A DNA stretch of 63,929 nt, counting the filler, from Craspedostauros australis (taxonomy: Eukaryota), in the NCBI GenBank assembly GCA_030167865.1. It is 21 parts of 21 records of this genome, joined end to end, with 100 filler letters (N's around TTAATTAATTAA, not from the genome) between each part and the next. Parts side by side here need not be neighbours in the genome. Positions count along the whole stretch, not along the records: positions 23,260 to 29,141 come from JALAGF010001325.1; 20 more parts are not named here. One strand, given 5' to 3'. Positions 13,744 to 50,428 of the stretch are shown piece by piece. The first letter of the stretch is position 1, and each line of letters begins with the position of its first letter. Under the pieces are notes generated by a model. It did not search any database and was not told where the DNA came from. It saw only the letters and a program-made list of their open reading frames with translations. Position numbers and translations under genes: made by a program.

Positions 13744-13745
<2 letters not shown>

Positions 13746-13794
<49 letters not shown>
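13746..13794 (+). repeat. (TTG)n microsatellite upstream of the permease
   Basis: Read directly. It accounts for the poly-N/Q/T/C/V/L spurious ORFs. Confidence 0.95.
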
Positions 13795-15072
13795 CTGTGT
13801 GAAGCAGCCTGTGATGACGAAGAGACAATGCAATCAGAGACAAGAACAGCTGGTAATCCCTCCGACGAGAGATGATGTCGACGTTTCGTCTCTCTTCTTT
13901 CTGTTGTTGCGGCCGTTGTGGCTATTGTGGCTATTGTGGTCGTTGCTGTTGCAGATGATGTTGTTGACGTCGGCACTCTGTCGTGCCGTTGCCACTTTCT
14001 GACGATCGTCGTGGTGGTGGCAACAACAACAACACACAAAACAACGCAACCGACGCCAAGGATCGCACAATCACACACACACATCAACAGATTCACCAAA
14101 CATTCACGCACGCTGACTCAGTCGTTTCATCCAAGCTTGCTGATTGGTCAGATCATGTCAGATTCAACTATCGCTCGTGAATAAGACTCCAACAAATGGA
14201 AATTACAATATTCATATTTTGCACGAGCTCCATATTCCTGTCTGGTCAGTCCCATGTCCAGTACGCAGCATGAAGCTAGATTACGGCTTGAGGAGAGGAG
14301 AAGGGATAGAGAGCACCATGATTCATACGCATCCATGAGTGATGCTGTAGTTCATACAAGCACAAGTATCATGACAATGGAATCAATGCTCTACATGCAG
14401 TGTAGAGCGTTTCATTGTTAATCATCTCTACCGCTACCTGTTGCAACTTCTCATAGCATGAGAGAGAGTGTGTTCTCTGATCACCATATTCTCCTGGACA
14501 CAGCGTAGCAAAGTGATTGGGTTCAGTGTACTGAGATGGCATATTGTGTCTTGGGAAAGTGTGTCATACGTTTCAGTGTTCCTAGTCTATTGGGAGGTGT
14601 GATCATCTGCTGTAGACGGCTCACTGGACAAACTATTAGTGAGAAGAAACTAATCCAGTCTTGTGCACAATAAATATTAGTCACGAATATAGTCACGAAA
14701 CCAATCATGTTGGCAGTCTCGCCTACGAGTCGTGTTAACGATCCATCCAGGCGAATCAATCAATACTCGAATTGGAGGGAAGATTTGCAAATGAGAAGAC
14801 ACGTCGTCACCAAAACACTTACCTCCATCCAGAAAGAGAACACTAGCAGAGAGTGCGCAGGTTTGGAAAAAATGTAGGTGGGGATCTCAAAATGTAGGCA
14901 TGGAAACAATCAAGGAAGAGGTTCAGAATGCAGAAGAGAGAGAGAGAGGTAGCTCAAGCAATCAAAATCTACTGTTCATCAACATCAACAACAACAATCG
15001 TCCGCTGGCATAAGGCACAGTGATATCACTCCTTGCAATTGATTATGGTACAGTACCACCAGACAACCAAGC

Positions 15073-16245: not shown

Positions 16246-17545
16246 TCAGACCGGACAGAAACGGTCTCCACATTTCGTTTTCGTAGCTCTTGTCGTGCGC
16301 TGATGCCTCCCAGTACTTCTTGATGAAGGTTTCTGCCAGCTCGTACTGGAAGAACATGAGCGCCATCTGCGTCTTGGCCCAGAACCGGAACGTGGCGCGT
16401 GTCTTGAGGTCAGATTCAGACATCTCGATGTCCGTTTCATCTGTTGACGTCTCCTCAAGGCTGTCTTGGTCAGTCGTTGACTTGATGGTGTCGTCATTGT
16501 TGCTGCCCTTGTTACTTCCTTCGCCCGCCGTGTCCTCGTTCTTGAAGCTCTCCCAATCCATCTCCTTGTACGAACTTGCGAGAAACCGGATCAGCCGGAT
16601 GATCTCGGAACCCATACCAATCACACCTTCCACACGGTACACAGCAGCTTGGTTGAGCATGGACTCGCCGTTGGTCAGGATCTGACCCAGGTTGCAACTT
16701 GTGGTGTAGGCATGCATCACGCCAAGTTGCCAATTCAGAAAGCCAGTCTCGAAATCACCATCCCCCATCGAAACTCGATATCCTTGCTGGTATGATGCGA
16801 TGATGTCGACAGGATCCTTGTAGATTGAGTATACGTACAGGTTGTTTGTGAGGTAAACCCAACCAGCGCGTACGTTGTTGCCAGGGATCTCATCCAGAAT
16901 GCGGTGGGCCAGATTCGCGAATCGAACACCGCCTTCGTGATCCCCGGCTGCGGAAGTGATGAGCGCGTACACAGCCAAGGTGCATCCACAATCTTCGTTG
17001 ATCCCATTCTTCATGATCCACCGCATGAGCTTCCCAACGGCAGCCAGAAACTGCACCATCTCGCCTATCAAGATTGAACGGACAGCGATCTCTTGCAGCA
17101 ACCGGAATGAATACACGGTCTCCGTGTCAGTCACACGCGGCAAGCCCAAGATCTCATCGTCTGTCACATTGCGGAAGAATGACTTGATCTTCCCCATGTC
17201 TCGCAAGAAGTGGACCATGTAGAAACGGGCAGGGAACATACCCGCCTTCACCAATGGGGATCTCGCGGACTCGAACGCGTCCACCAGCAGGTTCTCGCGT
17301 CCCAGCGACGCGGACAGAGCCAGGTACGTCGGCAGCTTATCCGACAGACATCTCGCGTTCGACAAGATGAGCTGGGCCATCTCACGTCCCAAAGACAGAT
17401 TGCCCAGGCCCAGCTCCACCTTCGATCGCGTCTCGAATAGACGCAAGGTCAGATCGTAGTGATCCACCCACTGGCTTGCACGATCCAATGCCTGATTGGA
17501 TTGGCCATCGAAGTGGGTCAGCTTGCACCAGGCGCGATGTGCATT
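16246..17545 (-). CDS. STAND-type ATPase family paralog 1, helical-repeat (TPR-like) region, partial
   Basis: W..HYDLTLRLF..RSKVEL.LGN..DKLPTYLA..SLGREN and SMGDGDFETG align with ORF 25110-29123. Confidence 0.85.
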
Positions 17546-17645: not shown

Positions 17646-18942
17646 CTCATGCTCGTTCCTGCCAAGTGCGGTTTGGGCCGCGGGTGTGTCGGCTCCGCCG
17701 CATTCCATCATGCCTGTCGCCGCGAGCACTTTTTGAATGAGCCCTGGCTGCCGCAAGTGGATGTAGTCGGCTTGTGGGTCACGGTTGACTTCGATACCGA
17801 GGAACTCGTTGAAGCTTCCTTCTTGGGTGAGTTCGAATCCTCGGTTTCGCATTGAGCGGATGAAGTCGTCTGCGAATTTCTTGGTCTTGGATGCGATGNN
17901 NNNNNNNNNNNNNNNNNNNNNNNNNNNNNNNNNNNNNNNNNNNNNNNNNNNNNNNNNNNNNNNNNNNNNNNNNNNNNNNNNNNNNNNNNNNNNNNNNNNN
18001 NNNNNNNNNNNNNNNNNNNNNNNNNNNNNNNNNNNNNNNNNNNNNNNNNNNNTGAGGACAAGGCAGGTGTTCGACCCCTTGCTTGACTTGAATCCTCGTG
18101 GTAGATGGAGGAACACCGGCTTGTGAATTTCGGCTTGGACGAAGGCGTTGGTAAAGTCGATTGATGTTGTGACCCATCCCAGGACGATGGATGTGATTAG
18201 GAAGATGCGGACGGAGGACCATGCCACGACTGGCGCATAAGTCGAAGCATCTTCGAGGATGAGATCGCCGCGGCAGCACCATCGACCCTTGTACTTCTTG
18301 ATTGTACCGTCGGGGAGGCGTTTGCGGCGGAAGACCCACGTACCTGGGTAGATTCTTTCTCCATAGGGCACGGTGTTCTTGTCGACTTCCTCCCATGTAN
18401 CCTTTTCGGTGAGATCTTGGATTTCCTTGTTCGCTGCTTGCATCCATGCGTCTCTATTATTATCACGGATGGCCTCGTCGAAGGAGAGTGTGTCTGGGTC
18501 GGAGGTGGAAGCCTTGTACACTGCCGTTCGCTCAGAGATGTCGAGGTCGGCGCCTGTGGCGAAGTAGCTCATGAGTTGCCAGTCAACATAAGCTGGAAAG
18601 TTGGTGGCATCTGGTTGTGGCTCGATGATGTTTACGGAGTATGCATGTTGCTCGATGTTGGCCCAATCCTTCTGTGGGATGCAGTTGTTGGTGTCAAGGA
18701 TGTAGCTCGGATCAACTGTCAGGGTGCTTTGGAGGATGGCTTGAAAGTCAGTCTCGCGCGTGTTGGGTACGTGATGGATCGGCTCTGTGCCTCCTTCTTG
18801 CACTCCAAGGTTGAATTGCTGAACTTCAAACTTGCTTGGTTGCTGCCATGGTCCTGGACGAATGGTGCTTGTGTGCTGTCGCAAGGATTCGAATGCCAGC
18901 CTGTAGTTGTGGCTCTGTCCGATCGCATTCCAGATGGAGAGG
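17646..18942 (-). mobile_element. Ty1/copia reverse transcriptase fragment (second lineage)
   Basis: DPDTLSFDEA..TWVFRRKRLPDGTIKKYKGRWCCRGD..YAPVVAWSSVR..IDFTNAFVQA..FLGIEV are RVT_2 motifs. The YxDD region falls in an N gap. Confidence 0.93.
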
Positions 18943-23259: not shown

Positions 23260-23881
23260 TATGGGATATGTTGATAGTATGCAATATGGAATCATCTATG
23301 GTGCTGGATCAAAATGATTGCAGCAATGAAAGCTGACATGATTAGTTGGCCAAGCTCATTGAATGATCCAGAGGGAACAGCTTTCATTGCCACAGTTGAT
23401 AGCACAGATTTTCATGCATGGGAGCAGAAACACTCAANNNNNNNNNNNNNNNNNNNNNNNNNNNNNNNNNNNNNNNNNNNNNNNNNNNNNNNNNNNNNNN
23501 NNNNAATCACTGTGTACCACTTAAAGTGTGTTTGGATCCACGGGCTCCACCAAGGAGGTAAACATGACTTGACTATTTGTTGTGAAGGATTGTTGCATCA
23601 GATCACAGGCGGAAAAGTCATCATTGCTGATTGTGGGCACAGGACGAGTTGTATGAAAAAGAATATGATGTGAACACCAAATGAGGTCGATGGGCCAGAA
23701 CTTGAAAACTTCAAGAGCAGAGCATGGTTGCATCATGAGACCTTCAATGAGAGACTGGAGTTCTTCAGCATGCTGGAGATCACTTTTGCATGGCACAGAA
23801 AAGCAGAAGCATGTGTTTGAAGCCATTTGTGTCATCGTGCAATACCATCAGGATGATGGAGCAGAACTCTTCGAGATTTGA
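23260..23881 (+). pseudogene. Degenerate PIF/Harbinger (DDE_Tnp_4) transposase
   Basis: IATVDSTD..VWIHG..GGKHD..IIADCGH..FKSRA..HETFNERL..H..VFEAICVIVQY with a stop and frameshifts. Confidence 0.8.
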
Positions 23882-24124: not shown

Positions 24125-24328
24125 TTGTCCGGTCTGTCCGGTTGATNNNNNNNNNNNNNNNNNNNNNNNNNNNNNNNNNNNNNNNNNNNNNNNNNNNNNN
24201 NNNNNNTTTTGTCCGGTTTGTCCGGTCTGTCCGGTCGTTTTGTCCGGTCTGTCCGGTTTGTCCGGTCATTTTGTCCGGTCTGTCCGGTCTGTCCGGTCTG
24301 TCTGAGTTTCTCCGCTTTTGTCCGGTCT
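24125..24328 (+). repeat. Array of 9-bp TGTCCGGTY motifs, probable DNA-transposon subterminal repeats
   Basis: More than ten TGTCCGG copies, with an internal N gap. Confidence 0.8.
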
Positions 24329-25109: not shown

Positions 25110-28100
25110 TCAAGCAGAAGCATCCGTCAACACGGACATGTCGTCATCGCTATTCACGCCATCAGCGTCGTTGCCATCCTGATTTGCGGGGTGCCCTGGC
25201 TCGCCGGACACGTGCGACACTCCACTCTCTTTCTCGGCGGTGCCCCCATACACGGATTCCTGTGCTAGCGTGGAGACATGATTGCCAACGCTGGAACTGT
25301 TTTGCCATCTGGGCGCTGACCCGTCCAACAGCAGAGTAACAGCTGCATACCCAGCGTTGTTGTTGCTGTTGCTGTTGCTGCTGTTGGGCATGTCGATATC
25401 CACGATCCTCCTGCCGTCCTTCGCGTTCTTCGATTGGATAGTTGCTGCATTCCTGTTTACCAGATACTGCAACCGCCGTTCTTGGATGTCTTCAGCCTTG
25501 ATCGTGCAGCCCCATTCCGTGTAAAATTCCACGGCACGTGTCATGAACTTGCAAATCGATTCGTGAAGTGCGGCCTTCAAAGTCTGAGTGCCAGTGTTGG
25601 ACGTGTGGCGCGAAAGGCCATCGGCCGCTCGGATCAGGTACTCGGCCGCATTCTCGCAACCGATGGCGCAATAGTGGGTCAAGGAGGCCCGCTCGGCCAC
25701 GACGATGGCCACACCGTAGGCCTCTTCCGTGCGACGGATTATGTCGCGATTCGACTTGATATCCTTCAAAGACAGCCGCTCGGCCTTGAGCAACTGGAAG
25801 AGGCTTGTCGCGTTGCATCCCTTGGTGGCCACCAGGTTTCTGGCCGCTGCGACTTGCTTCTTCAGCTCTCTCTTGTACTTGGCCTTGCCCGTGATGCGGC
25901 ACAAGGCGGACGATGCAAGGCCTCGTCCAAGGATGACCGTGGTCTCAAAATAGTAGCTCTTGCTGTGGCCCGACAATCCGCCGTACAGCTTCGTCATTCG
26001 CTGTGCAAGTTCGTATCGTCGGAACAGAACTGCTAGCAGTGGAAGGCCGGAGTAGGTGACCACGAGGCGGTGGACTTCCTTTGGGTCTGCCGCGCTTTCT
26101 TCCATGTCGCGCTGCAGGTTGCCGTCGATATCTTCCCACTCAATCGATTCAGCTCCAGTCAATAGCTTGGAGACCGTCAACAGTGCGATGAACATGTCAT
26201 TGTTGAAAGTCACGTTGTACACTTTCGACTGTTCGATCGCGTTTTCGAGCGCCTTCACCAACGGCCCGAGCTTGTATCCGAAGTAGAACGCCTCGGCGTT
26301 GCGGATTTGCAGATTCAGCAACCCTATCTCAAAATCGCCAACCTCCATGGCAAGCGCGTGCCCTCTTTCCAACAGCTTGATGCATGTATCAAATGGTTCA
26401 GTGTAAGGATAAATCACGCCTCCTGTGATGGCACAAACGCCGCTGATTTGTTCCTGCCCACCGGCCCGAGACAACAGCCGGTGGCCGAGATTCGCACACC
26501 TCAGCACCAACGTGCGTTCTGCGTTGGTAAAGTCAAAGATGATGCCAAGCGTGGCAAAGGACGCGGCTGATTCTTCGCCGATGCCATGATTCATGGTCAT
26601 GCGGACCTGCCGCAACATATAAACGAGCCATTGCAACAAATCGCCCGTGAAGTATGACCGGACACCGATCTCCGCCACGAACTTCATCGCCATCGTTCTC
26701 TGATGACTCTGTTGCACTGGTAGATTTAGGATGTCCTCGTTGGTGTTGTTCTTCATGAATGATTTGATTTGGAAGAGGTCATTCGCAATACGAAGAAGAT
26801 AGAATCTCTTTGGACGTTCACCCAGTTTGCTTGCAATGGACAGGCTCAGCTTCAATGATTCCGTGGTTTTGTTTTCTCTTCCCAATGCCTTGGCCATGGC
26901 GAGGTTCGTTGGCAGCTTATCATCCAGCGTCCGAGCTCTGCTGATGAGCTCCTTCGCTACCTTGTATCCAAGCTCGGAGTTCCCCAGCGACAGCTCGACC
27001 TCGGATCGGCATCGGAAGAGCTCCAGACAAAGCTTGTAGTGCTCCTCCCAAGGATTGCGGACGCGCTGCAGTTCGCTGGTCGCTTTTTGCAGATATGTCG
27101 CAGCCGATGCCAATGCGCCCATCTGAAGCGCCTTCTTTCCAACCTCGATGTTGAAGGTAACCAGGAAGAGATGATCCTTGCTCTGTGTGCTGTTGAGGTG
27201 GTCGGCAGCAATGAAGAGCAAGCCATCGACGTCCCTGATCATATGGCCCGGATGACGGCTGAGGTCAATCTCAATGTCAACGTCAATGGCGATGGCAAGG
27301 TCAGCGCCCTGATGCTCGTCGTGAGTAGAATCGTTGGCGACCATTGTCGGAGCTCCTTGGGGCGCATCTTGGTGCTCAATCGGTGTCAAGAGTGAGTTTG
27401 ACTTCTGGTAGATGAGCAGAAGGCAGTGGCCTATTTGCGATCGGAGCTTGTCCCGCATCTCACCGAAAGGGATCAATCCATGAGCCGCTTGTTGGACGCG
27501 ATCATGAGCAAAATGATAGCGATCCTCGCCGATAGAGTTGGTCACAAGGCCTTCTAGGAGAGCTCTCTCGAGGACCAAGCGCAGTCGATTGCCGGTCCAC
27601 GGTGTTGGCTCTGTGGAGAGGTCTACCTCCGAAGTCTTCGTGGCTGTGCTATTATTGCTGTCGCCAAACGGCACGTCCAACCCACCATGATCGTCAAGAT
27701 ACCGAAGCACGGCTTGAAGCACGTTCAAATCAAATGTTGATCGGATGTATGCCGCAACCGACAGAGCATGCTGTAGATCACGCGGCAGATGCTTCAGTTG
27801 CAGCTCGATGATGGCGACGATGTTGTCGCCGATTGGAAGCTCGCCGTTGCCATCATGGAGAGATTCGCTTAGATCCCACTCCCATCGCTGCGAGATGCGA
27901 TTGTGGATGATGATGCCCCTCCTCTTGAGTTCCTCGATGGCCTGGAGCGTGAAGTACACGTTGCCGTGTGTTTTGTTGTGGATCTTGGATGCCAGCTGCT
28001 TGAGGCCATCATCATCGCGGGATCGACGAAGAAGATGGGACAACCAGTGGATGCAGTCCAGTAAAGACAGATCGACAATGGTGATCTGCTCAAGGTTTTT

Positions 28101-29141
28101 ACTGCTTCCATTGCTGCGAATTGCTGTGTTTGTGTGAAGCAACCGATCCAGGAATGATCTCTGCAAGGGTGCGTCCGGTGACATTTCCACTGCTTGGTGG
28201 TTATGAGGGTCGGTCTCCTGGCGGACGGCGCCCAGCAACATGAAATTGCGGAGATCGCTGTCCATGAGCAGTGATGCCAGAAGCTCCAAGCCAGCGGCAG
28301 ACGACCACTGCAAATCGTCAAGGAAGAGGTAGGCTGGCCGTTGCGGAGTGGAGATGGCCTTCACGAACTGGATGAAGATGTAACAGAGCCGGTTCCATGC
28401 GCCCTGCGAGTTGCCGCCTGTGGATGCGGTGTTGTTCGGGCTGGTGTTGGTGCCCAACGCATCGGACGTGAAAAGGGCGTCGGCACTGTCGCTAGCCGTT
28501 GATCCATTCTCCGTGATGGCACCAACCGCGGTGCGAGCATCGCGATTGCTGGCTGCAGTACGTTGCACGATTGCTGCGGGTGCAGAGGAAGAGCCTGTTG
28601 CGACACTTGCTGATGATCTGATAGCGTTGGGGAGGAGGATGGATAGTGAAGGCACAACGGCAACCAAAGTACGCAAGGCGGAATGACTATACTTTGCCAT
28701 ACCGTGATGCGCCTGGCCGATCGAGCAGTCATCAGTGAGGTCATTGTCGTTGGAGCCTGCGACGCCGTCGTCGGAACAGAACGTAGCTTGCACAGACTGT
28801 TGAATCCGTCGCAGCTCTTCGAAAGGTCCATTTCGGAGTTGCGTTGCGAACTCATCCAATGCTTGGATGATAGCGGAGAAGGGATCCTTGCCAGCTGCGT
28901 ATTCGTCGTATTTCCCGCGCAGCACATAGCAGCATGAGCATCGTTGAATCGCACGTTGTGATAGTTGTTGCTGGTGATGATCCTCTGGTCTTGACGTCGA
29001 TGCGAGTGCTGCTGTAGGCATCGACTGTTTGGATTGATGCCTGCCTCCGCAGAAGCAGCAGCAATGATCCAGAAAATGGCTGATCAGCTGTGACTTGCCG
29101 GTCCCGCTTGTTCCCCAAACCAACGCGGCTGGGAAGGTGGG
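25110..29141 (-). CDS. STAND-type P-loop ATPase with helical-repeat C-terminus (AAA_16/COG3899-like), paralog 2, 5'-partial
   Basis: 1337-aa open frame: Walker A GTSGTGKS, GKYD..PFSAI, Walker B YLFLDDLQW, KTHGNVYF, FAHDRVQQAA, long helical region, FY.EWG near the C-terminus. Confidence 0.92.
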   Translation of the reverse strand, partial: PTFPAALVWGTSGTGKSQLISHFLDHCCCFCGGRHQSKQSMPTAALASTSRPEDHHQQQLSQRAIQRCSCCYVLRGKYDEYAAGKDPFSAIIQALDEFATQLRNGPFEELRRIQQSVQATFCSDDGVAGSNDNDLTDDCSIGQAHHGMAKYSHSALRTLVAVVPSLSILLPNAIRSSASVATGSSSAPAAIVQRTAASNRDARTAVGAITENGSTASDSADALFTSDALGTNTSPNNTASTGGNSQGAWNRLCYIFIQFVKAISTPQRPAYLFLDDLQWSSAAGLELLASLLMDSDLRNFMLLGAVRQETDPHNHQAVEMSPDAPLQRSFLDRLLHTNTAIRSNGSSKNLEQITIVDLSLLDCIHWLSHLLRRSRDDDGLKQLASKIHNKTHGNVYFTLQAIEELKRRGIIIHNRISQRWEWDLSESLHDGNGELPIGDNIVAIIELQLKHLPRDLQHALSVAAYIRSTFDLNVLQAVLRYLDDHGGLDVPFGDSNNSTATKTSEVDLSTEPTPWTGNRLRLVLERALLEGLVTNSIGEDRYHFAHDRVQQAAHGLIPFGEMRDKLRSQIGHCLLLIYQKSNSLLTPIEHQDAPQGAPTMVANDSTHDEHQGADLAIAIDVDIEIDLSRHPGHMIRDVDGLLFIAADHLNSTQSKDHLFLVTFNIEVGKKALQMGALASAATYLQKATSELQRVRNPWEEHYKLCLELFRCRSEVELSLGNSELGYKVAKELISRARTLDDKLPTNLAMAKALGRENKTTESLKLSLSIASKLGERPKRFYLLRIANDLFQIKSFMKNNTNEDILNLPVQQSHQRTMAMKFVAEIGVRSYFTGDLLQWLVYMLRQVRMTMNHGIGEESAASFATLGIIFDFTNAERTLVLRCANLGHRLLSRAGGQEQISGVCAITGGVIYPYTEPFDTCIKLLERGHALAMEVGDFEIGLLNLQIRNAEAFYFGYKLGPLVKALENAIEQSKVYNVTFNNDMFIALLTVSKLLTGAESIEWEDIDGNLQRDMEESAADPKEVHRLVVTYSGLPLLAVLFRRYELAQRMTKLYGGLSGHSKSYYFETTVILGRGLASSALCRITGKAKYKRELKKQVAAARNLVATKGCNATSLFQLLKAERLSLKDIKSNRDIIRRTEEAYGVAIVVAERASLTHYCAIGCENAAEYLIRAADGLSRHTSNTGTQTLKAALHESICKFMTRAVEFYTEWGCTIKAEDIQERRLQYLVNRNAATIQSKNAKDGRRIVDIDMPNSSNSNSNNNAGYAAVTLLLDGSAPRWQNSSSVGNHVSTLAQESVYGGTAEKESGVSHVSGEPGHPANQDGNDADGVNSDDDMSVLTDASA

Positions 29142-29241: not shown

Positions 29242-30261
29242 AGCTCACGAGCTCACCCAAGCCGCGCACATCACGATTTGCGACAGGCACCGACGCCTCA
29301 GGCGATCCCACACACATGTCGACTTTGACAAAGTATTCCAACATCTCCCACCACAAGTGGTGGCGAAGACCAAGGAAGCATCCACCCAGCTGGCCGACAC
29401 ACCCATCGAGGCCGAGTCAAGACTCATCCCAAGGCAGTATCGAGCACAGCAAGTAGATGCGTTGCAACCATACCGAATCAAGGGAAGGGTGGACACAGAT
29501 CCATTTTTCTCCACGGTCCCATCCATCCGACAATACCGATGCATCCAACTCTTCACACACAGCGAATCCAAGTTCATCTGGGCCAAGCCGCTCCGAAGGG
29601 AGGCGATGGCGCCAGGGGCGCTGACGGATTTCATTGTGCAGGTCGGGGCACCGGATCTACTCATCTCGGACAACTCACAGGTTCAGGCAGGGAAGGCATG
29701 GAAGGCTGTAACCACAAGGTACATGATCAAGCACTCCTTCACTGCTCCAATGAACCAGAACCAGAACCGCGCAGAGCGAGCCATCGGGAGCATCAAGGGA
29801 CACGCATACCAGATGCTCTGGGCCGCAACTGCACCGCTCACATTTTGGTGTCACGCAGTGCAGCACGCTATCGACGTATGGAACTACACGGCCAAAGAAA
29901 GCATTCAGTGGCGCACCCCAATCGAGATGTTGCGAGGCAACACACCGGACATCTCCATGTTCCGATTCACGTTCTTTCAGCCAATCTGGTATTTTGAGCC
30001 GATGACGAAGTTCCCACACCATCCATTCAAGCCTGGGCATTTCTTGGGGATTGCATGGGACCATGGGGACCCTTTCACCTATCACATTTGGTCGCCAAAA
30101 GGCAAAGACGTAACCAAGGGCACGGCCCTGGTGCGCAACATCGTAAAACCACGAATCGCGGACGACGCAAGTGCACCGCGCATTACCGACGAGGAAGTGC
30201 AACGAATCGCACGCCTCGATCTGATACACTATCAAACCAATGGCGAATCGGGACAGCGGGC
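29242..30261 (+). mobile_element. Ty1/copia (CoDi-like) integrase core fragment
   Basis: VDTDPFFS..GAPDLLISDN..P.NQNQNRAERAIG (D,D,E triad), then RTPIE..G.TPDISMFRFTFFQPIWY. Frame is open. Confidence 0.92.
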
Positions 30262-30361: not shown

Positions 30362-30710
30362 GTCAGTGACTGGGTGGATCGGGATCTTATTCTTATCGAG
30401 GACGTCGCATCCGATCTCAACGCAGCGGATGCATGCACCAAACAGACGCCGTCGGTTCTCTTTTTCCGCCATACTGACTTGATAATGGGTCGCTTCCGCC
30501 CGTCTTTCGCTCAAGACCATGATGGGCGTCGCTCGGTCAGAGCAATTTTTCCCGCTGGAAATCTTCCAGCGTGGGGGGGTGTTGGCATACGTACGCAGGA
30601 CAGACGTCCGCAGCCTCCGCCTCTGAAGAGTGACAACGGAGACAGTCTCCTCCCATAAATCCATCATTAGCACACACACACACACACATCCTCCCGTACA
30701 GATACTGACA
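30362..30710. mobile_element. LTR family A, copy 1 (about 350 bp)
   Basis: Termini (T)GTCAGT...ACTGACA (TG..CA, short inverted ends). Appears identical to 33980-34328 with a different flank. Confidence 0.88.
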
Positions 30711-30893: not shown

Positions 30894-33707
30894 CTATACC
30901 ACACCACGCATCAACACCTGCTTCATACCGTTGGGGAACATGATGACCTTGTCTCCATTCGGCAGATGTCGTTCCGTTTGCTGGTTGGAATACTCGTACA
31001 GGACAGATTGATCTGGCAATGTGATTTGCAGGACTTGATCGCCGGCGTGGAAGTAGGCGACGCTGCCGGAATGGGGAAGCTTGGTCTCGACGTCGCCATT
31101 CACAAACCGAGTCACTGTGGTGCCATCGTGATGGACTTCCTTCTGGACTCCATTGCTGTACCGGATCATGTACCCACGATCGCTTACCTCTTTGGTTCGT
31201 CGGCTCCTGCGTTCTGTTGTTTGCTCTGGGCCATTGGTGGCGGTTTGCTGATGTGTCAGTTGGGGCCCATCAGCAGCAACTGCACCTGTGGCCTGGAACA
31301 GCCTGCCTCCTTGCGATTGGTGCGGAGAGTCGATGAAATGGTTGGCTGCGCGCTTGTGCGCCATGACAGTGGTCGTTGGATCGTCAGCATGTCGGATGGG
31401 CTGATTCGCGGGAGTTTGAGCAACGTGACGCGGGATTTCATCGGAGGCCACGTTCCCGTAGCCCTGACTTGAGAAGCGATCTTGCGGGCTCTCAGATTTG
31501 AGTGACGATCCCAAAGTCCCGCCGCTGGTGCTGGTTGCGCTGACAACTAGCTGCTCCACCGAGCTCAGTTGATTACCGAGCTGCTGCATCTTGGATTGCT
31601 GATTAACAAGCAAGTCTTGGAGGGATGCTTCAGTGCTCTGGCGTTTCTGATGTTCATGCGTGACTTGCTTCTGAAGCTCAAGCACCGCTCCCTCCAGTGA
31701 CTGGATGAGATGGGTCTGCTGCTGCAAGTGCTGTTGCGAGAGAGCCTCCCTATCCAGCTGATCCTTTCGATGAAGTTCACTATCCTCCTGCTGCTTCTTT
31801 TGCTCCTGCTGCTGTTGCTGTTGATGCTTTTCGAAGTCAAGTAGATTGCGCTGTTCAGTTGCCCATTGGCCGACAGAAGTTTTCACAGATTCGGCCCATT
31901 CCCTGGCAGAGTCCCGTTCTCTCTGAGCATCATTCAAGGTTGCGACGGCCTTTTCCAACAGTTGCTTCACAATTCTCGAGTCTTTTCTATGTGCTGGCGT
32001 GCCGTTTGGTGCAGGTGTGCCTTGTGATTGTTCGATTTGGGCTGCCAAAGATGCAGCCGCCGGTGTGGATGTTGGTGGGAGCAGTTGGGCTGGTGAAGGA
32101 CTAGCCGCAAAGGACGTGGACTTTTGGGTCTTCTGAGACCTGTTCGTCCTGTTCGTGTTCGGCGGTGCCATTGGCTCGTATCTGTCTCGCGACATGTCAG
32201 CAAAGTGTTGCGGGCTCTCCCACGTTGGATAGTTGGCTTGCAATGCAGCTTCGTGCGAGCGTAGATCCTTCTGTTGGTGTTGCTGCTGTGGTTTTGGAAC
32301 TGGTGGCTGTGATGGCATGGTTCTGGACGCCATCGAGATGTACGAAGTGCCCAGCAGCGAGGAACTGCGGTCGGCGACGTTTCCACCACTCCCATCTGCA
32401 ACTGCGGTGTGATTGCTCCGAGAACCATCCACAGATCCTTGATACTCGGTCGACATATCAACAATCGGAGGATCAGGGCGATGAGCCGTGCTGGATTCAA
32501 AGGCAGCTGGATTGTCTTGTCCAATAACTGTGGAGTACTGCGCTCCCATCTTGACAGCTTGTGGATACGCCTGCTCCTGGGAAGAAGCTTGTTTGTAGGG
32601 CTGCTTATGATGCATTCCTTGCGACTGATTCAGTGATGACGCTCCCGCAACGTTGGAGATGGCATTCGTTCTATCCGACAACGCTGATCTCGATGGTGAT
32701 TGATGGAGCTCACGCGGAAACTTAACAGATGTCATGGGAGGCACGCGGTTCTTCGAGCTGATGTGACGACGGCCCCTGGAGGGCGTCATGAGTGCGTTTC
32801 GGTTGGACAATTGCGATGCATCCACAGTCATAGACCCAGCGCCAATGCCAACGCCATTTGTAACCTCGTCGTCTTCGTTCGCATCGGTTGATGCAAGCCG
32901 GCGAAGCTCCTGATGCAATCGTGGTGATGCGAAACCAAGGCCATCTATGTAGGACAGCAATTCGTGCACGTCCTGTGACTCCAGAACTGGCTTGTTTTGT
33001 TGCAATGCTGTGCCTGCTGTACCTTGTGTAGCTGTCGAAGTTCGCCGTGCTGACACAGATGCAGCTGGTTGCTTTTCCGCAACTTGTGGCGTCTTGAGAA
33101 CCGGCTTGCCGTCTGGGGAGAGCATGATCAATCGCTTCCAATCCGCCGACCAGGCAGATCCCCGCGAGTTGGCATCTGCTGGTGTGGGAGCGTCATCGAC
33201 TTGCGGTTGCGATTGCGGTTGCTTGGTCTTGCGATGAGTGACTGGCTGCGTATGTGGTTGCGGATGATGGTGATCGAACACGGGAGATAGATTTTCTGCC
33301 ATGCTTTTGCTAGTACTCGTATGTGGTGCTGTGTGATGGTTCAGAGGTCGCTGCACGTTTGGTTCCTCATGAAGCTGCTGGGTCGGAGGTGGTGGCCTTC
33401 GCACGCTCGTAGGCTCGATGATATGCTTCGATGAATCGACAGAGAGGGAGTAACTGAGCGGCGAGAAGAACTCGTTGGGGATGACGTTGGTTGCCGTCGC
33501 CGGCGGCGTTCTCCTTGGTGCGGGTGCGTATCGGTCATCATCTCTGCGACGAACTTCATTCATCATCATTTGCGTGCCTACATCTGCACCTGCGCTCGTA
33601 TTCGGATTCATGTTCGTGTTCATGTTCATGGTTGGAGTCATGGCCTGATGTCCCGAAACAGCAGCTTGATACTGCACCTGCTGCGGAGGTCCTCTGCTGA
33701 GAATCAT
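30894..33707 (-). CDS. TCP10/CENP-J (SAS-4/CPAP)-like protein: disordered N-terminus, coiled coil, Tcp10_C domain
   Basis: C-terminal beta-hairpin repeats YSNGVQKEV..FVNGDVET..YFHA..YEYSNQQTERHLPNGDKVIMFPNG after a Q/E-rich coiled coil. ATG at 33707 chosen; start uncertain. Confidence 0.82.
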   Translation of the reverse strand: MILSRGPPQQVQYQAAVSGHQAMTPTMNMNTNMNPNTSAGADVGTQMMMNEVRRRDDDRYAPAPRRTPPATATNVIPNEFFSPLSYSLSVDSSKHIIEPTSVRRPPPPTQQLHEEPNVQRPLNHHTAPHTSTSKSMAENLSPVFDHHHPQPHTQPVTHRKTKQPQSQPQVDDAPTPADANSRGSAWSADWKRLIMLSPDGKPVLKTPQVAEKQPAASVSARRTSTATQGTAGTALQQNKPVLESQDVHELLSYIDGLGFASPRLHQELRRLASTDANEDDEVTNGVGIGAGSMTVDASQLSNRNALMTPSRGRRHISSKNRVPPMTSVKFPRELHQSPSRSALSDRTNAISNVAGASSLNQSQGMHHKQPYKQASSQEQAYPQAVKMGAQYSTVIGQDNPAAFESSTAHRPDPPIVDMSTEYQGSVDGSRSNHTAVADGSGGNVADRSSSLLGTSYISMASRTMPSQPPVPKPQQQHQQKDLRSHEAALQANYPTWESPQHFADMSRDRYEPMAPPNTNRTNRSQKTQKSTSFAASPSPAQLLPPTSTPAAASLAAQIEQSQGTPAPNGTPAHRKDSRIVKQLLEKAVATLNDAQRERDSAREWAESVKTSVGQWATEQRNLLDFEKHQQQQQQEQKKQQEDSELHRKDQLDREALSQQHLQQQTHLIQSLEGAVLELQKQVTHEHQKRQSTEASLQDLLVNQQSKMQQLGNQLSSVEQLVVSATSTSGGTLGSSLKSESPQDRFSSQGYGNVASDEIPRHVAQTPANQPIRHADDPTTTVMAHKRAANHFIDSPHQSQGGRLFQATGAVAADGPQLTHQQTATNGPEQTTERRSRRTKEVSDRGYMIRYSNGVQKEVHHDGTTVTRFVNGDVETKLPHSGSVAYFHAGDQVLQITLPDQSVLYEYSNQQTERHLPNGDKVIMFPNGMKQVLMRGVV

Positions 33708-33979
33708 GGTCACTTTGATGCTCAGTTCAAATCTGTGAGCCTTGTGTGGGATAAAGATGATGAAGGTGAATGGCAGAGGTGCAGCAGGCACCAAAGACGA
33801 ACGATCCCTCCTCAATGTGTTGCGATCTCGCCAACGCGATGCAACCACGAACAGAGAGATGTGAAAGCGCCAGAGAGAGNNNNNNNNNNNNNNNNNNNNN
33901 NNNNNNNNNNNNNNNNNNNNNNNTTAATTAATTAANNNNNNNNNNNNNNNNNNNNNNNNNNNNNNNNNNNNNNNNNNNN

Positions 33980-34328
33980 GTCAGTGACTGGGTGGATCGG
34001 GATCTTATTCTTATCGAGGACGTCGCATCCGATCTCAACGCAGCGGATGCATGCACCAAACAGACGCCGTCGGTTCTCTTTTTCCGCCATACTGACTTGA
34101 TAATGGGTCGCTTCCGCCCGTCTTTCGCTCAAGACCATGATGGGCGTCGCTCGGTCAGAGCAATTTTTCCCGCTGGAAATCTTCCAGCGTGGGGGGGTGT
34201 TGGCATACGTACGCAGGACAGACGTCCGCAGCCTCCGCCTCTGAAGAGTGACAACGGAGACAGTCTCCTCCCATAAATCCATCATTAGCACACACACACA
34301 CACACATCCTCCCGTACAGATACTGACA
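33980..34328. mobile_element. LTR family A, copy 2
   Basis: Matches 30362-30710 and diverges immediately after ACTGACA. Confidence 0.88.
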
Positions 34329-35321: not shown

Positions 35322-37044
35322 TTAGTGGTCCGCATCTGTCAACAATGAACAATTGTCGTCCATGGCACTTGCCATGTTGCCTCTGCTGCCCATCGCACCA
35401 TCCTTCGAAGTGTTTTCTGCTTGAGAGTCGCGTGCCTTCCTTGCCGCAACCAAGTCTGCAACAGAATCAACGGTCACATGACTTGGCGTTCGCTCCGATG
35501 TCATATCTTGGTTGATGCTCGATTGGTCATGATCTTGTGGCAAAGCAAAGGAGTTGACTTGACCTGTGAGACTGCTTTCCATCTTGATCTCATGCACGCG
35601 ATCTTCGTCAATGTAGTCGCCGTAGGCTTCACGGAAGATCCTGCATTTGGGAAGAGCGCCCCATTTCTCATAGAATCCCAACGCCTGGGTAAAATAGCTA
35701 CGGATGCGAGGGTCTTCTGGGTTACTGCTCTTCAACATGTACTTGCCTGCCAACTCGCATACAAGGCCTGCTTCGTGAAGGTGCTCTCCTTTCCGGGCTT
35801 GCTTGATGGCATCATTGTAGCAGGACTCCACTAGAGCAGGCTTGGTGCCTCCGACCTTGATTGCTTTCCATTCGGCACGAAGAATCAAGTACCGATGGAA
35901 CGCGCACATTCCTTTGGCTTCGCAGGTTTCCTTCAGCCGCCGCTTTTGCTGTCGCAACATCTTGAGATATTTTCGCTTCTTCGTTTGGTGATATCGGTGA
36001 GAGGCCATGACGCCACTGAGGATGGCGGAAGATGTGAAACGGTCAAAAGTAGGATCCGAAGTGGTGCTTGTCCTGAGCAGATGATTGACTTTCTCCGCGT
36101 GTCCAAACTTCCCGAAGTACACTGCGATGTGGAGTCTGCACCAATAGGCCAGAAATAGGTTGGATGTATCAGTCTGCTCATACTTGTCAGCGTCCATGAG
36201 TGCCTCCCAGTCCAACTTGAGAGTGCCGCGCATGTAGTGGGAGGTATTTGATAGTTCAGTGACCACCCCAATGCGCCCTTCATTTTTGTATATCTTCATG
36301 TGTTCGATGAGAGAGCTTGCGGCTGCTATCACCTCTGTGAGAGGCCGCCCGTCAAAGAATGAGGAGTATAGACTGCCCTCCTGCGCTAACTCACTGAGCT
36401 CAACGTCACCAACTGCCATGGCCGAGTCATAAGCATGTTGGAAGTCTTGCCTCAGTTGGTAGAAGGGTTTAGAGTATGGATCGATGAAAACAGCAGCGGC
36501 ATAGTAAATCCATCCTTCTGTCTTCGTGCCACGGTGTATCCGGCGTATAGTCTCTTTTGCAATCTTGGCGCATTTGTGAGCGTTCGCAAATTCACCCATC
36601 TTCATCTGGAGGATGGCAAAGCCATTCAAAGCACCAGCAGAATACTCACAGATACCATCCCTTTTAGTCATCTGTATCAGCAACAAGGTCGCCAACATCC
36701 ATGCCACCATCTCTTGACTCGAGTATGCTCGGATAGCAACCTCGTGCAATAGATTCATGGAGTGTATTGTGTGTGGATTGATTGTGATGGGATTTTGCTC
36801 GAAAAACTGCTCCATACTTGTCTTCTCCAAGTACGCTTTCACAGAAAAAAGCTGCGAAAAAGCGCGCAACACCAACCATCGCTTCGGATACTCCCCACAC
36901 AATTGAACACCCTGTTGGGCCAACTGCAAGCCTTTCATGTGCTCATTTTGCTTCCCCAATGCATTGGCCATCGCGATGTACGTAGGCAGCTTGTCATGGA
37001 TGGATTGGCCATGATCAAGCACCTCGTATCCCAACGAATACCCC
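35322..37044 (-). CDS. STAND-type ATPase family paralog 3, C-terminal helical-repeat half, 5'-partial
   Basis: DKLPTYIAMANALG, AMAVGDVE, HEAGLVCELAG and FYEKWGA align with paralog 2. Confidence 0.88.
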
Positions 37045-37144: not shown

Positions 37145-37813
37145 CTCCATGTACATCTCATCTTGCAGTATTGGTTCATCTCATCATGCATCTCATCATG
37201 CATCTCAGATATTCCATCTCCTGCCTTCTACCAATAGTTTCGTTAGCATAGACATTGCCAAGTCGTAGGCATCACACAGCTCGGTCCATTCGATCGGATC
37301 AGGGTCTCCGATTCGTCACGGGAGCACCCTGGATGGGAGTTCATTCAGATCCTCATCGTCACACATCTCCAATCATCTCCGATGCTTCTCCTGTCGTTTC
37401 TGCTGGTTTCTTCGCCGATCACTTCACCGGCTTCCTGGATGTTCCTCATCTCAGGTTCGTTCACAGGCCATCTTACACTTTGTGACATTGGCCTTCCTCC
37501 AGTACTCTTTTCTTATTGGTTGCGACATGGGGGCCGTAGTTGCTTGTATTGTGATGGTGGTCATGATTCCAACATCCCCGCCCCCTGCGACATACACGTG
37601 TGATTCGCATTCCTGCATTGAGGTCACGGACACCAACATCCGGTTCGCATTCGGCACGTGGCGTTCTCCACCGCAAGACACGTGCAGCTCACATTTTTCT
37701 GTGTCACAATGATCAAAGGTGGGAGTTGCGACAATGTAGCATATCATAACATTCGACTCCTTACTCTTGGGAGGTGCGGCAATTCAGTGTTTCACAACAC
37801 CCGATTCCTGACA
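37145..37813. mobile_element. LTR-like repeat family B, copy 1 (one end)
   Basis: Near-identical to 39266-39983. Shared sequence ends at CCCGATTCCTGACA. Confidence 0.8.
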
Positions 37814-39265: not shown

Positions 39266-39983
39266 CTCCATGTACATCTCATCTTGCAGTATTGGTTCAT
39301 CTCATCATGCATCTCATCATGCATCTCAGATATTCCATCTCCTGCCTTCTACCAATAGTTTCGTTAGCATAGACATTGCCAAGTCGTAGGCATCACACAG
39401 CTCGGTCCATTCGATCGGATCAGGGTCTCCGATTCGTCACGGGAGCACCCTGGATGGGAGTTCATTCAGATCCTCATCGTCACACATCTCCAATCATCTC
39501 CGATGCTTCTCCTGTCGTTTCTGCTGGTTTCTTCGCCGATCACTTCACCGGCTTCCTGGATGTTCCTCATCTCAGGTTCGTTCACAGGCCATCTTACACT
39601 TTGTGACATTGGCCTTCCTCCAGTACTCTTTTCTTATTGGTTGCGACATGGGGGCCGTAGTTGCTTGTATTGTGATGGTGGTCATGATTCCAACATCCCC
39701 GCCCCCTGCGACATACACGTGTGATTGGCATTCCTGCATTGAGGTCACGGACACCAACATCCGGTTCGCATTCGGCACGTGGCGTTCTCCACCACAAGAC
39801 ACGTGTAGCTCACATTTTTCTGTGTCACAAAGATCCACAGGTGGGAGTTGCAGTAATATACAATTTCACAACGCTCAACTCCACACTCTTGGGAGGTGCG
39901 GTAATATATAAATTCACCATGCTCAACTCCACACTCTTGGGAGGTGCGGCAATTCGGTGTTTCACAACACCCGATTCCTGACA
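39266..39983. mobile_element. LTR-like repeat family B, copy 2
   Basis: As copy 1, plus a 49-bp internal duplication at about 39852-39949. Confidence 0.8.
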
Positions 39984-46673: not shown

Positions 46674-49600
46674 TCCGGATCGCTTGCCAGTCAAGCCTCT
46701 GCCTACAGCTAAAGAACAGCCAACAAGACAACAGCCATTACGTTTGGGCTCTATTAGGCTGTTGGGGGCGATTCGCTGAGCCAACCTCGACATGGTGAGT
46801 CCGGAATGAAATGCCTTGAGAGATAGGACCATCATTGAATGTTCTGCCTTGCAAAGATGCTCAAGTGGGCCGATGCACTTCTTTGCCACCTGTAGTTCGC
46901 CAAAGTATGCTGCCAGCTGCATGCAACCCCAAAACTTGTACATCCACTTGATCCATTCTGAAGGATTAGTATCTTTCACCGATATCGAGTCAACCAGACT
47001 CTTCCAGTTTTCTTGCGTCAATGATACTGTGAGATCGCTCTTGCCGCACAAGATCATCGACATATCGTAAGCAGGCTCGCAGATGTCTTCTAAGATCTTG
47101 AGGCCGTAGTGTTGTGCTTGCCCAAGCAATGATTTCATCACTCGACACAGTGGGATGAGAGGTAAACCAGCCGCAGATGCGAGGATCAAACTAATTGCCC
47201 AGCATCGGTATGCTGACTCCGGGTCGCCTGTTTCCATTGCATCTTGCTGGCCTCGACGTAGATCGGCCAAGCACACGTGAACAGGCTGGGACCACGAGTC
47301 AACGAAGGTTTCCATCGCCAAAATGTAACGACCAAAGAGGTATTTGGACTCAGTTACATCGATAATACGCCTCGACAAGGCAGCCAGCCGTTTGCCCAGA
47401 CGTATCTTCTTGAAGACATTCATGAAGATGATTCCAGCACAACAGAAGGCGTAGGCACCTTCTGCGCATAGACCATGTTTCAGTGTGAGCCGAACTTGTC
47501 GGAACAGAATGAAAATCAATGTCCCAATCTGGTTCGAGCAGTGAGCAGAGAAACCAGCATGCTCCAATATCTCCATTGTCAGCTTCATCTTGGGGTTCAT
47601 CGTGACGGAGAGGTTCATGACCTCGTCGTCGGTGTGCTTGGAGAAGTAGGCGTTGATCTTCTGAAAATCCCTGAGAGCGAGGAATAAGTGATTCCTCACA
47701 GGGACCGTCTCCAGCAACTTGAGTGATTGGAGCTGGAGATCCAACGACTATTTGAATCGTTCCAAGCGATTCAATGCCTTGGCTAATGACAAGTTCATCA
47801 AGATCTTGTCCTCCATGGCCTGATCCGATCTCGTCACGATGGTCTGACACAGCATCAGTCCCTTATCGTAGTTGCCGAGGGTCAGCTCGGTCTCAGATAG
47901 GCTATGATACACATCCCTGCATAGATTGTGCTGCGTCTTCCATGGATCAGCAATCTTGATTTCAAGATTCGTCAAGGCTCGGTTCAGATACTTCACTGCT
48001 GGAACGAGTGCAGTGACACTAATCGCGAGCTGTCCTGCCTTGAGGTTGAGATGGACGAGATCGATGGCTGGGATGATATGATCAGAGACCGTGAGCGACG
48101 ACACGTTCTCGAGGTGGTCCGCAGCCATGAACCACATCCAGTCTTCACCCAGCATGGGATCAGATGCGATCTCCATGAGATGCTTGCCAATCCGATACTT
48201 CATTCGGTCCAGCTCGTCGCCTGGAGGGGTCAACGAGAAGGCTGCCTGTTGAATTCGGTCGTGGGCGAAGCGGAATGTCGCGCCCGAGTCGACAAGGCGC
48301 TGTGTCCGATCTGTGTCCGCCTCGATTCTCTCTAGCAGCTCCTCTTTCACTGCCATGCTCAATGCTTCACCGACACTCATCTCCGCCACTGCCAGGGTAT
48401 TCCTTGTGCCAGCATCAGCTGCTTGATGTACCTGACGCCCCTCCATTTCCCAATCCACCAGCGTCTCCAATAGAGACTGACGGAACGTCGATCGTAGAAA
48501 CGACGCCATCTGCAAACACTTTTGCATATCCTCTGGCAGTGAATACAGCTTCGATATGATCAGGTCAACCACATTCGCCGATAGGTCCATTTCGTCAGCT
48601 GCCCGCTTTTCATCCCATTCCCACTGCATCGTATGGATGCTGCAAGTGAGAACCTTGCGACGGCGCAATCTCTCCAACGCTTGAATGGTGTAGAGCACGT
48701 TGCCTTGCGTTTTGTCATGAAGCAGCTTCGCTAGAGGTGCGGTTGTGATGGTATCCAACCGAAGTGACGATGCAAGAAGCTCCGCAGTTTGAGTGACAGT
48801 GAGATCGTTGAGAGGGATGTCATGGACGGTCTTTCCATTGGTTTGCCATTGCGAGACGGCGGTGGTGAGGTGATGTTGAGGGTCGTTGTGCACCTCGTTG
48901 GATCGATATGATCCAATCATGAGAAGGTTGCGGATGGATGGATCGAGGAGAATCTCTGTGATGAGCTTGAGCGATTGCCCATCGACCCATTGGAGATCTG
49001 TCCATGTGCATACAGTTGTGTGAATGTGAAAAATCAAAGATTGGGGGCGTGGTACAAGGGTGGTTCAGTGAAATGGTTCAGTGAAATGATAGTGTGCAGT
49101 GTGGTATGGCGTGGTAGTGCACGCATGCAACGAAAGGTATGGGCGGTGGAAGCAAGTATCCGAGTCTGCAACACTATGCGCTGCCGTTGGTTTCACTCAC
49201 CGTCCAGATAGAGCACGAGCGGGCGATCATTCGTACAGATGGCTTTGAGGATCACCTTGAAACCATGTACGAGTTGAGGCCATTCCTTTTCTCTCGATCT
49301 CACACCTACGCGTTGGTCCGCATCGAGGAGCGATACTGTCGTCATCGATTTTGCGCCAACTGACTGCTCTTCGATTGACGATGTGGTGTGACCAATTGGT
49401 TTCGTGGTGGCGTTGTGGTTGTTGCGGTTCATCATCCGGAATGGCTTGGAATGCGGCTGTGCCCATTCTTGTTCTTCGCTCGCACCGTTTCCGCTTGCAG
49501 CGATCTGGAGGTTGCTCTGGTAGTTGCTGCCGAACATATTGGAGAGGCCAGGAATGAGTTTGCACATGCGGTCACACTGGGTATCGTCCATCTTGTTTCG

Positions 49601-50428
49601 AATGGTATCCCGAATGCGGTTGCTCTCCGCAACATCATCGTCCTCGCCAGTCTCCCCGAGATGCTCGAAGAAACTAGACAGAGCATCGACGATGGCCGAC
49701 AGGTTGCCCGCATTGTTGAACTGGTCGTACTTTCCCTTGCCAACGTGGCATGGGTGCATATCCGATTGTCGTTTCTTTTTGTCGACTTTCATTTGTGCAA
49801 CGGTATCGCTTCCATCTGACGCTGGTGGCACAGTGCCCAAAGGAGATGTTTCGACACCCAAGCCCCCCAGGAAGCGATTCACCAACGCTGACTTCCCTGT
49901 CCCGGAGTATCCATGGATGAGCACAACCTGCGCCTCCGTGTTGCCCTTTTTCGCGCCGCTTGTGATGTCGTCACTGCTGCCGGCTGATGTCTTGGATGAT
50001 TTGCGGCATATGCATGCATAGATCGAGTTCAGCCGTTCCAGCTCGTCTTCGCGTCCAACAAAGCGATCGAACCGTAGCCGATCCCACCGTCCGCTGCTTG
50101 TGCTGTGACCATGGTTATCGTCGGTGTCATCGGGCTTATCGTCGTGATCCACGTCGTTGTGTTCATCATCCGGATCTGAGTGGCTGTGCGTATCATGGTC
50201 ACCATCATCATGGTCATCATCATCATCATCATCAATACTGTAGATGTTGTAGACATTCGATCCACGCGTTGAGCTGGCTGTTTCCTCCACCGTGTTGGTG
50301 GCAGCATCTGAAGCGGCGGCAGCATTTGTGTTCGTCTCACTCCCACTATGTCCTTGCGACAGCGAAACATGATGGCCACGGTTGACTGGTGGGATACGGA
50401 GGTCCTTTGAGGAGCGGCGAGTCGACAT
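46674..50428 (-). pseudogene. STAND-type ATPase family paralog 4 with intact 5' end; exon 1 50428-49201, exon 2 from 48997; in-frame TAG at 47750-47748
   Basis: FVGREDEL, Walker A GYSGTGKS. GTGAG..CAG intron 49200-48998 restores Walker B LYLD-D-LQW. KTQGNVLY, FAHDRIQQAA. The same frame continues after the TAG (ORF 47744). Confidence 0.85.

Follow-up and report, generated by a model that had tools for sequence, protein, structure and literature searches.

Four homologous genes on unlinked contigs

We analyzed a window of 63,929 nt from the genome of the diatom Craspedostauros australis (GenBank assembly GCA_030167865.1) which consists of 21 contigs joined by artificial spacers (N44 + TTAATTAATTAA + N44). 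Our main subject is P0001, a gene encoding a predicted STAND-type ATPase with a helical-repeat region, together with three homologous loci termed paralogs 1, 3 and 4 (Table 1). Because adjacency across artificial spacers does not represent linkage, the four loci are unlinked, and their shared minus strand is uninformative since contig orientation is arbitrary. Homology of the encoded proteins, as claimed in the initial annotation, was confirmed by BLASTP. P0001 could be aligned with paralog 1 at 31% identity (16247-17545, 398 columns, E 1e-54), with paralog 3 at 24% identity (35322-37043, 624 columns, E 7e-44) and with two stretches of paralog 4 at 27% (47751-49064, 500 columns, E 7e-50) and 23% identity (46674-47747, 295 columns, E 2e-21). 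A family hidden Markov model (HMM) built from a 55-sequence alignment (A1) matched these four loci only, in six pieces among 893 six-frame open reading frames (ORFs), and no fifth copy was found in the window. No similarity among the four loci was seen at the DNA level. All of them overlap in the region equivalent to P0001 aa 725-1048 and thus represent four genes and not pieces of one.

P0001 was matched by the Pfam family AAA_16 with E 3e-14. Its reading frame leaves the contig eight codons before the Walker A motif and the N-terminus is therefore unseen, not absent. In case of paralog 4, the match of exon 1 to AAA_16 (E 2.7e-7, 31.7 bits) lies just below the Pfam cut-off of 32.6 bits. The intron of this gene is canonical (GT..AG, 203 nt, phase 1) and splits the Walker B motif between LYLD and DLQW. 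Paralog 4 further contains an in-frame TAG within the solenoid (47750-47748). At this site, the alignment with P0065, its nearest relative, is colinear, and the TAG results either from a nonsense mutation or from an error of assembly. The search for the nearest relatives of paralogs 1, 3 and 4 was made among the proteins retrieved with P0001, and closer ones may exist. The N-terminus of paralog 4 comprises about 130 low-complexity residues without a kinase, and no Pfam-recognizable frame was present in the 1.3 kb upstream.

Table 1. Positions of the four family loci, of the predicted domains of P0001 and of associated features within the window
Feature	Positions	Strand	Remarks
Contig holding the main gene P0001	23260-29141		
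P0001, main gene	25110..29141	-	1343 codons + TGA stop; single exon; open 5' end, contig ends at 29141
P-loop nucleotide-binding domain, aa 1-358 (predicted)	28068..29141	-	five parallel strands; Walker A 29091-29114, Walker B (DD) 28305-28328; sensor-1 Arg307
Helical domain aa 359-407 and two winged-helix units aa 408-556 (predicted)	27474..28067	-	AlphaFold2 model and alignment A1
Long 'arm' helix aa 561-583 and low-confidence linker aa 587-620 (predicted)	27237..27473	-	AlphaFold2 model
Alpha-solenoid, putative sensor region, aa 636-1212	25506..27236	-	TPR/SUPR-like; 27 helices in modeled aa 636-1200
Low-complexity C-terminal tail aa 1213-1343	25113..25505	-	S/A/N/D/G-rich; ends in DDMSVLT at 25125-25145
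Paralog 1	16246..17545	-	433-codon solenoid fragment; fills whole contig, open at both ends
Paralog 3	35322..37044	-	C-terminal 573 codons + stop, covering the solenoid and a tail that ends in DNCSLLT; open at 5' contig end
Paralog 4	46674..50428	-	ATG 50428; exon 1 to 49201; intron 49200-48998; exon 2 48997 to contig end 46674
Dispersed repeat	33980..34328	.	end of paralog 3's contig; 100% identical to 30362-30710, start of neighboring contig

Sequence motifs and predicted fold of P0001

The anchor motifs listed in the initial annotation are all present in P0001 and conserved across A1. They comprise GTSGTGKS (residues 10-17), LFLDDLQW (272-279), GNVYF (393-397), FAHDRVQQAA (544-553), WEEHY (698-702), AMEVGDFE (931-938) and FYTEWG (1206-1211). 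Within A1, G13, G15 and K16 are invariant and G10, D275, D276 and H546 are kept in 90% or more of the rows, with Q278, W279, R307, G393-N394 and F544 also being invariant or near-invariant. We take these columns to represent the P-loop, a double-acidic Walker B motif and sensor 1, together with a GxP-type motif in the helical domain and an MHD-like histidine latch.

An AlphaFold2 model of P0001 aa 1-1200, based on 55 aligned sequences, reached a mean predicted local distance difference test score (pLDDT) of 79.8 and a predicted TM-score (pTM) of 0.78. A second model, restricted to its nucleotide-binding oligomerization domain (NOD, aa 1-590), had a pLDDT of 78.6. Low confidence was found for three inserts in the P-loop domain (aa 33-67, 124-139 and 173-242), and pLDDT dropped below 50 at aa 1176-1185. 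In the model, GNVYF with its near-invariant G393-N394 is placed in the helical domain (27951-27965), and the FAHDR motif including His546 on the second hairpin of the winged-helix part (27483-27512).

Comparison of the NOD model with 48,161 PDB representatives returned MalT, a STAND transcription activator of Escherichia coli, as the first match (8bob_D, Z 12.3, root-mean-square deviation (rmsd) 4.6, 314 residues aligned), followed by the archaeal STAND-TPR protein PH0952 (6mfv_A, Z 11.4, rmsd 4.9). ORC/Cdc6 proteins scored Z ~10 at an rmsd of ~13, and NRC1, Apaf-1, NLRP3 and Avs3 scored Z 8.3-9.5. When the whole P0001 model was searched with Foldseek, PH0952 (6mfv, E 1e-6) ranked first and Avs3 (E 2e-5) second. 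The solenoid segment aa 811-1177 superposed on domain III of MalT (1hz4, Z 19.8, rmsd 5.3, 335/366 residues aligned), with Rap/NprR, APC3-type TPR proteins and LGN as the next folds. MalT is thus the best structural match for both halves of P0001 and shares the same order of nucleotide-binding domain (NBD), helical domain (HD), winged-helix domain (WHD), arm and solenoid. The two proteins differ in that MalT carries a C-terminal LuxR/GerE DNA-binding domain whereas P0001 has no GerE/LuxR match, its frame ending in the low-complexity tail followed by TGA. Further, P0001 is predicted to have two winged-helix units as well as long disordered inserts and tails, and identity to MalT is only 11-14%. 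PH0952, at ~10-12% identity, is much shorter and has a different N-terminal region. At the sequence level, no meaningful PDB match to P0001 was found (best E 0.78).

Based on this modeling, a STAND fold is predicted for P0001 with high confidence, with Walker A, a double-acidic Walker B and a predicted NBD-HD-WHD arrangement in which the conserved histidine would act as the latch. The initial annotation had named the lack of such a fold as a refuting outcome, and this outcome did not occur. The C-terminal region, as initially annotated, is modeled as a helical-repeat structure of the TPR-like solenoid type, which corresponds to the repeat superstructure of STAND proteins and would function as the sensor. 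A fused effector domain, the remaining STAND hallmark, appears to be lacking from the sequences of P0001 as seen, its relative P0004 and paralog 4; no Pfam domain beyond AAA_16 was recognized in the three. The complete C-termini of P0001 and paralog 3 likewise contain no GAF plus histidine-kinase/cyclase output. The label of NLR did not hold in its strict sense, as NACHT and NB-ARC were not matched in P0001 at E<=0.1, no LRR was found by Pfam and the C-terminal region is all-helical in the AlphaFold2 model. Near-identical internal repeats or signs of exon shuffling were also not found in P0001, which contains short low-complexity arrays only.

Within the C-terminal tails, a short acidic motif recurs. 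The pattern [DE]-x(0-2)-S-[VLIC]-[LIV]-[TS] was found in 15 of 76 tails of at least 40 aa, whereas 500 shuffles gave 2.1 on average and 7 at most, and its density was 1.9 per 1000 residues in tails versus 0.21 in protein bodies. Besides the endings of P0001 and paralog 3 given in Table 1, forms such as DEVSILT, DDISVLS and DEVSVLT occur in relatives, the motif-bearing ones including P0032, P0033, P0035, P0045, P0058, P0069, P0095 and P0100. By its consensus, the motif presumably resembles a SUMO-interaction-type or peptide-docking motif and could act as a peptide of this kind. It represents a new lead. When the tail (aa 1296-1343) was docked in silico onto the solenoid (aa 636-1215), the score was 0.00, which is no answer and weighs neither way.

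Family size, architecture and origin

In our literature searches, no paper describing an expansion of AAA_16 or STAND families in diatoms was found. Using P0001 aa 250-1235 as a phmmer query against 1.84 billion representatives, in protein collections that do not contain this diatom's own proteins, we retrieved 9989 relatives at E<=1e-3, 6294 at E<=1e-10 and 482 clusters at E<=1e-30. ESM Atlas neighbors of P0001 and of its solenoid form clusters of 60-122 members, mostly from Eukaryota and most commonly from Bacillariophyta. The family is large, as the initial annotation had proposed, with many Atlas clusters of at least 50 members labeled Bacillariophyta. Those of the 482 clusters that carry labels are diatoms. 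Among the relatives, one has the label of the centric diatom Skeletonema dohrnii. When the solenoid was searched by itself, 28 of the 30 best Atlas clusters were without a Pfam family. Public databases already list such proteins under automatic names, e.g. 'Orc1-like AAA ATPase domain-containing protein'. A metagenome scan with the family profile returned 80 loci, mainly from soil-type records and bacterial-looking.

Length and Walker A position were evaluated for the best 149 relatives and P0004. Median length was 1094 aa; 109 proteins measured 900-1500 aa, 36 were shorter fragments and 4 had at least 1600 aa. A Walker A motif could be recognized in 115 proteins. It lay no more than 250 residues from the start in 104 of these, a distance too short to accommodate a kinase domain, and at residue 280 or beyond in ten. 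Pfam scans were carried out for 73 relatives, consisting of 36 enriched for long N-termini, 35 more, P0004 and P0005. In the enriched set, AAA_16 was found in 36/36, a kinase in 5/36 and GAF with a cyclase or histidine kinase in 2/36. AAA_16 was matched in 34 of the further 35, none of which showed a non-P-loop domain at E<=1e-5, and was the only match in P0004 and P0005. No other non-P-loop domains were found in the 73 relatives save for sub-threshold TPR-type matches in two, and these two are included in the 68 proteins for which AAA_16 is the sole Pfam domain. NACHT overlaps on the P-loop were sub-threshold only. The lack of a catalytic effector first noted for the window copies thus extends across the family. 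P0004, the nearest full-length relative of P0001 (40-45% identity), starts with about 180 disordered residues followed directly by Walker A, and an N-terminal kinase is absent from it as well as from paralog 4 and its upstream region; in P0001, this part is cut by the contig end.

The family profile also matched bacterial Pkinase-AAA_16-(TPR_CHK1)-GAF-(PAS)-histidine kinase/cyclase proteins, e.g. from Sorangium and Bradyrhizobium, with E values down to ~1e-200. Homology to these proteins spans the ATPase and the helical region, single-sequence coverage reaching up to 78% at 22% identity. The connection to such bacterial proteins made in the initial annotation is thus corroborated. They are true homologs over AAA_16 and the helical region, but neither the N-terminal kinase (that end of P0001 being off the contig) nor the C-terminal GAF/histidine-kinase/cyclase module is present in the diatom proteins. 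A related layout is found in fungal group X hybrid histidine kinases of the Candida albicans Chk1 type, which carry an ATPase, a TPR region and GAF behind a kinase-related domain. TPR_CHK1, the Pfam name for the TPR region of this group, weakly matched the relatives P0010 and P0174 and did not match P0001 at E<=0.1. Unlike the fungal proteins, P0001 is without a histidine-kinase or receiver output.

A quick maximum-likelihood tree of the solenoid segment (102 rows without taxon labels, LG+G4, rooted on three bacterial rows) placed the bacterial and kinase-bearing forms (P0161, P0174 and P0104 with P0160) at the base, with all four window copies falling within an 86-row kinase-less clade (Shimodaira-Hasegawa-like approximate likelihood ratio test (SH-aLRT) 97). 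P0001 grouped with P0004 and P0040 (SH-aLRT 98) and paralog 4 with P0065 (SH-aLRT 99), paralogs 1 and 3 being unresolved inside an 11-row clade. Since each window copy sits nearer to outside proteins than to the other window copies, they represent old paralogs and not a recent local burst. The idea of a fast-turnover family did not find support, as it rests on a single nonsense codon and the tree shows old paralogs.

Proposed function and alternative explanations

We consider it probable, at roughly 60%, that the four copies belong to a large family of diatom STAND ATPases of the MalT/SWACOS type derived from bacterial-type kinase-STAND-GAF-histidine-kinase/cyclase proteins, in which kinase and output module were lost and signaling proceeds via recruited partners. 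SWACOS is reportedly the name given to this STAND clade by Leipe et al. in 2004. It is used for a named STAND clade in passages of PMC13581612, PMC7159879 and PMC13236601. The classification itself, as MalT/SWACOS-type STAND proteins with a TPR-like sensor that expanded in diatoms without kinase and output domains, is well supported. The modeled layout consists of AAA_16 P-loop, helical and winged-helix domains, followed by a predicted TPR-like solenoid of ~560 residues, with low-complexity tails at both ends.

By analogy with MalT and other STAND proteins, the resting state would be an ADP-bound closed monomer latched via the conserved histidine of FAHDR. Binding of a ligand or partner by the solenoid would open the protein, which would then exchange ADP for ATP and oligomerize. 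As there is no enzymatic effector, the oligomer would have to recruit partners that provide the output. The disordered termini are candidates for this recruitment, among them the C-terminal end with its conserved acidic motif.

Several points weigh against this interpretation. P0001 itself could still possess a kinase exon, given that its N-terminus lies outside the window. In the NOD search, the lead of MalT over ORC/Cdc6 amounted to less than 2 Z units, even though the ORC rmsd was much larger. Long N-termini silent in Pfam exist in P0141 (655 aa), P0320 (~1090 aa) and P0005 (~420 aa) and could represent degenerate kinases or domains of an unknown type. Finally, taxon labels reach only a minority of cluster members.

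The initial annotation had proposed a candidate role in innate immunity or non-self recognition. In this case, the solenoid would recognize pathogen or virus molecules and an oligomer would trigger defense or cell death via a partner. Across all 1485 pairs of A1, mean identity fell from 0.32 in the NBD and 0.31 in HD/WH to 0.28 in the N-terminal and 0.24 in the C-terminal half of the solenoid. For P0001 and P0004, the corresponding values were 0.56, 0.53, 0.51 and 0.29. In the 48 closest pairs we obtained 0.50, 0.43, 0.38 and 0.34, of which the NBD value is inflated because pairs were chosen on NBD identity. Synonymous sites would be saturated between the available pairs, these being no more than 45% identical. 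The C-terminal half-solenoid is thus the most variable folded part, markedly so between P0001 and P0004, and the overall gradient is modest. As a whole, the solenoid falls only moderately short of the NTPase in conservation. Across the family, it retains W698, Y702, G720, G853, R881, G935 and G955, which could also be aligned with three bacterial relatives. These residues suggest that binding of a common ligand or partner is a better fit than recognition of diverse targets.

Besides the variable C-terminal half-solenoid, several observations are consistent with an immune role. The combination of a NOD with a TPR-like sensor is the layout of Avs/AVAST antiviral STAND proteins, Avs3 being the second Foldseek match, and the same layout is found in the candidate NB-ARC-TPR receptors of Ectocarpus (PMC3341825). 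As in these systems, the family is very large and divergent. One window copy contains a nonsense codon and a dispersed repeat lies beside paralog 3. However, P0001, P0004 and P0041 had no match at E<=0.01 in PADLOC, whose library consists of prokaryotic systems only, and bacterial relatives matched via their kinase domain only. Death, TIR, nuclease, protease and pore domains were found in 0/73 relatives. In contrast to Avs and to the Ectocarpus proteins (PMC3341825), P0001 lacks an effector domain, NB-ARC and exon-shuffled near-identical repeats. Further, the window paralogs are old and did not arise in recent bursts, and the characterized relatives known to us are signal transducers. In case of the fungal group X histidine kinases, passages of PMC4965123 describe functions in oxidative-stress sensing and morphogenesis. 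An immune interpretation is therefore possible but speculative and rather improbable, none of these findings lending it specific support. Passages of PMC3341825 also describe Ectocarpus ROCO receptors, and PMC5599023 gives one NB-ARC-TPR protein and one NACHT protein for Thalassiosira pseudonana.

A more specific version appears unlikely to us. Here, effector-less MalT-like STAND proteins would be the diatom counterparts of NLRs, with the variable C-terminal half-solenoid reading diverse biotic cues and the oligomer displaying the acidic [V/I]-S-[V/I]-L-[T/S] tail which would recruit a common executor. If true, signaling by tail display would constitute a STAND output mode that has not been described so far.

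It also appears unlikely that the kinase-less proteins are regulatory partners of kinase-bearing paralogs, forming NOD co-oligomers that tune a kinase/histidine-kinase pathway in a manner similar to sensor-helper STAND pairs. This would be compatible with the existence of kinase-bearing relatives without GAF or histidine kinase (P0104, P0160 and P0174), which branch basal to the kinase-less clade, as does P0005 with its kinase-like but Pfam-silent N-terminus, and with the conservation of NBD and HD/WHD residues in kinase-bearing and kinase-less groups alike. By eye, a kinase-subdomain-like stretch can be discerned at the N-terminus of P0005.

That the copies are decaying or non-functional remnants in small contigs of repeat-rich DNA is very improbable, since despite the in-frame TAG of paralog 4 and the location of all four copies on short contigs, three of them cut by contig ends, P0001 is uninterrupted over 1343 codons and retains all catalytic and latch residues, the frames of paralogs 1 and 3 stay open for 433 and 573 codons, respectively, and full-length relatives number hundreds.

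Taken as MalT/SWACOS-type STAND ATPases, these proteins form a very large and uncharacterized family of diatom switches, defined by fold and phylogeny, which have shed their kinase and two-component modules. This raises the question of how a STAND protein signals without an effector domain. Walker A/B, the FAHDR latch, the variable C-terminal half-solenoid and the conserved C-terminal motif can serve as experimental handles. Diatoms account for a large share of ocean primary production and, to our knowledge, almost nothing is known about their intracellular sensing of viruses, bacteria, grazers and mates.

Repeats and other features of the window

The initial annotation had also described the family as neighboring transposable elements (TEs). 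Because the contigs are unlinked, this cannot be read from adjacency in the window, and TE proximity is shown for the contig of paralog 3 alone, through the dispersed repeat listed in Table 1. No Pfam family was found for the ORF of this repeat, and Pfam detected no TE domains (E<=1) in the regions flanking P0001 and paralog 3. By eye only, 33980-34276 resembles the end of a copia-like polyprotein and 23278-23673 a transposase-like ORF. A tandem array (24207-24328) with a TGTCCGG-type unit and periods of 9, 22 and 31 adjoins an N run and lies about 800 bp downstream of the stop codon of P0001.

Pieces of copia-type retroelements lie at 3-1241 (minus strand, RVT_2 match E 3e-14) and at 29243-30259 (plus strand, weak match to the integrase core rve, E 0.04), the latter on a contig other than that of P0001. 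Several contigs share their ends. The 349-bp end common to contigs 9 and 10 is identical (30362-30710 = 33980-34328, 100%), contigs 11 and 12 have a common 640-bp end at 97% identity (37145-37783 and 39266-39905), and 83 bp are common to contigs 17 and 20 at 98% identity (52299-52381 and 60594-60676). These shared terminal repeats indicate that contigs break at dispersed repeats. The order of contigs in the file is not fully random and may follow the assembly graph.

The Pfam survey covered the window ORFs other than 17646-18941, 42575-43420 and 45209-46573 (all minus strand). Long open frames of 411-897 aa without a Pfam family at E<=1e-3 were found at 3457-6147 (plus), 1245-2486 (minus), 40837-42069 (plus) and 62363-63928 (minus). 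On further unlinked contigs, 7141-11007 (plus) encodes a DEX1-like protein that combines a beta-sandwich with FG-GAP-like repeats, and 30897-33878 (minus) a protein with a Tcp10_C (CENPJ-like) C-terminus. A Trp/Tyr permease with an N-terminal extension of ~300 residues is encoded at 11524-13833 (minus), likewise unlinked, and was used as a control gene. Its relatives, the copia-type reverse transcriptase and the short GT-AG intron together point to a raphid pennate diatom. The best relative of the permease showed 72% identity, with named relatives from Cylindrotheca fusiformis (63%), a Bacillariaceae metagenome-assembled genome (63%), Nitzschia inconspicua (58%) and Seminavis robusta (53%).

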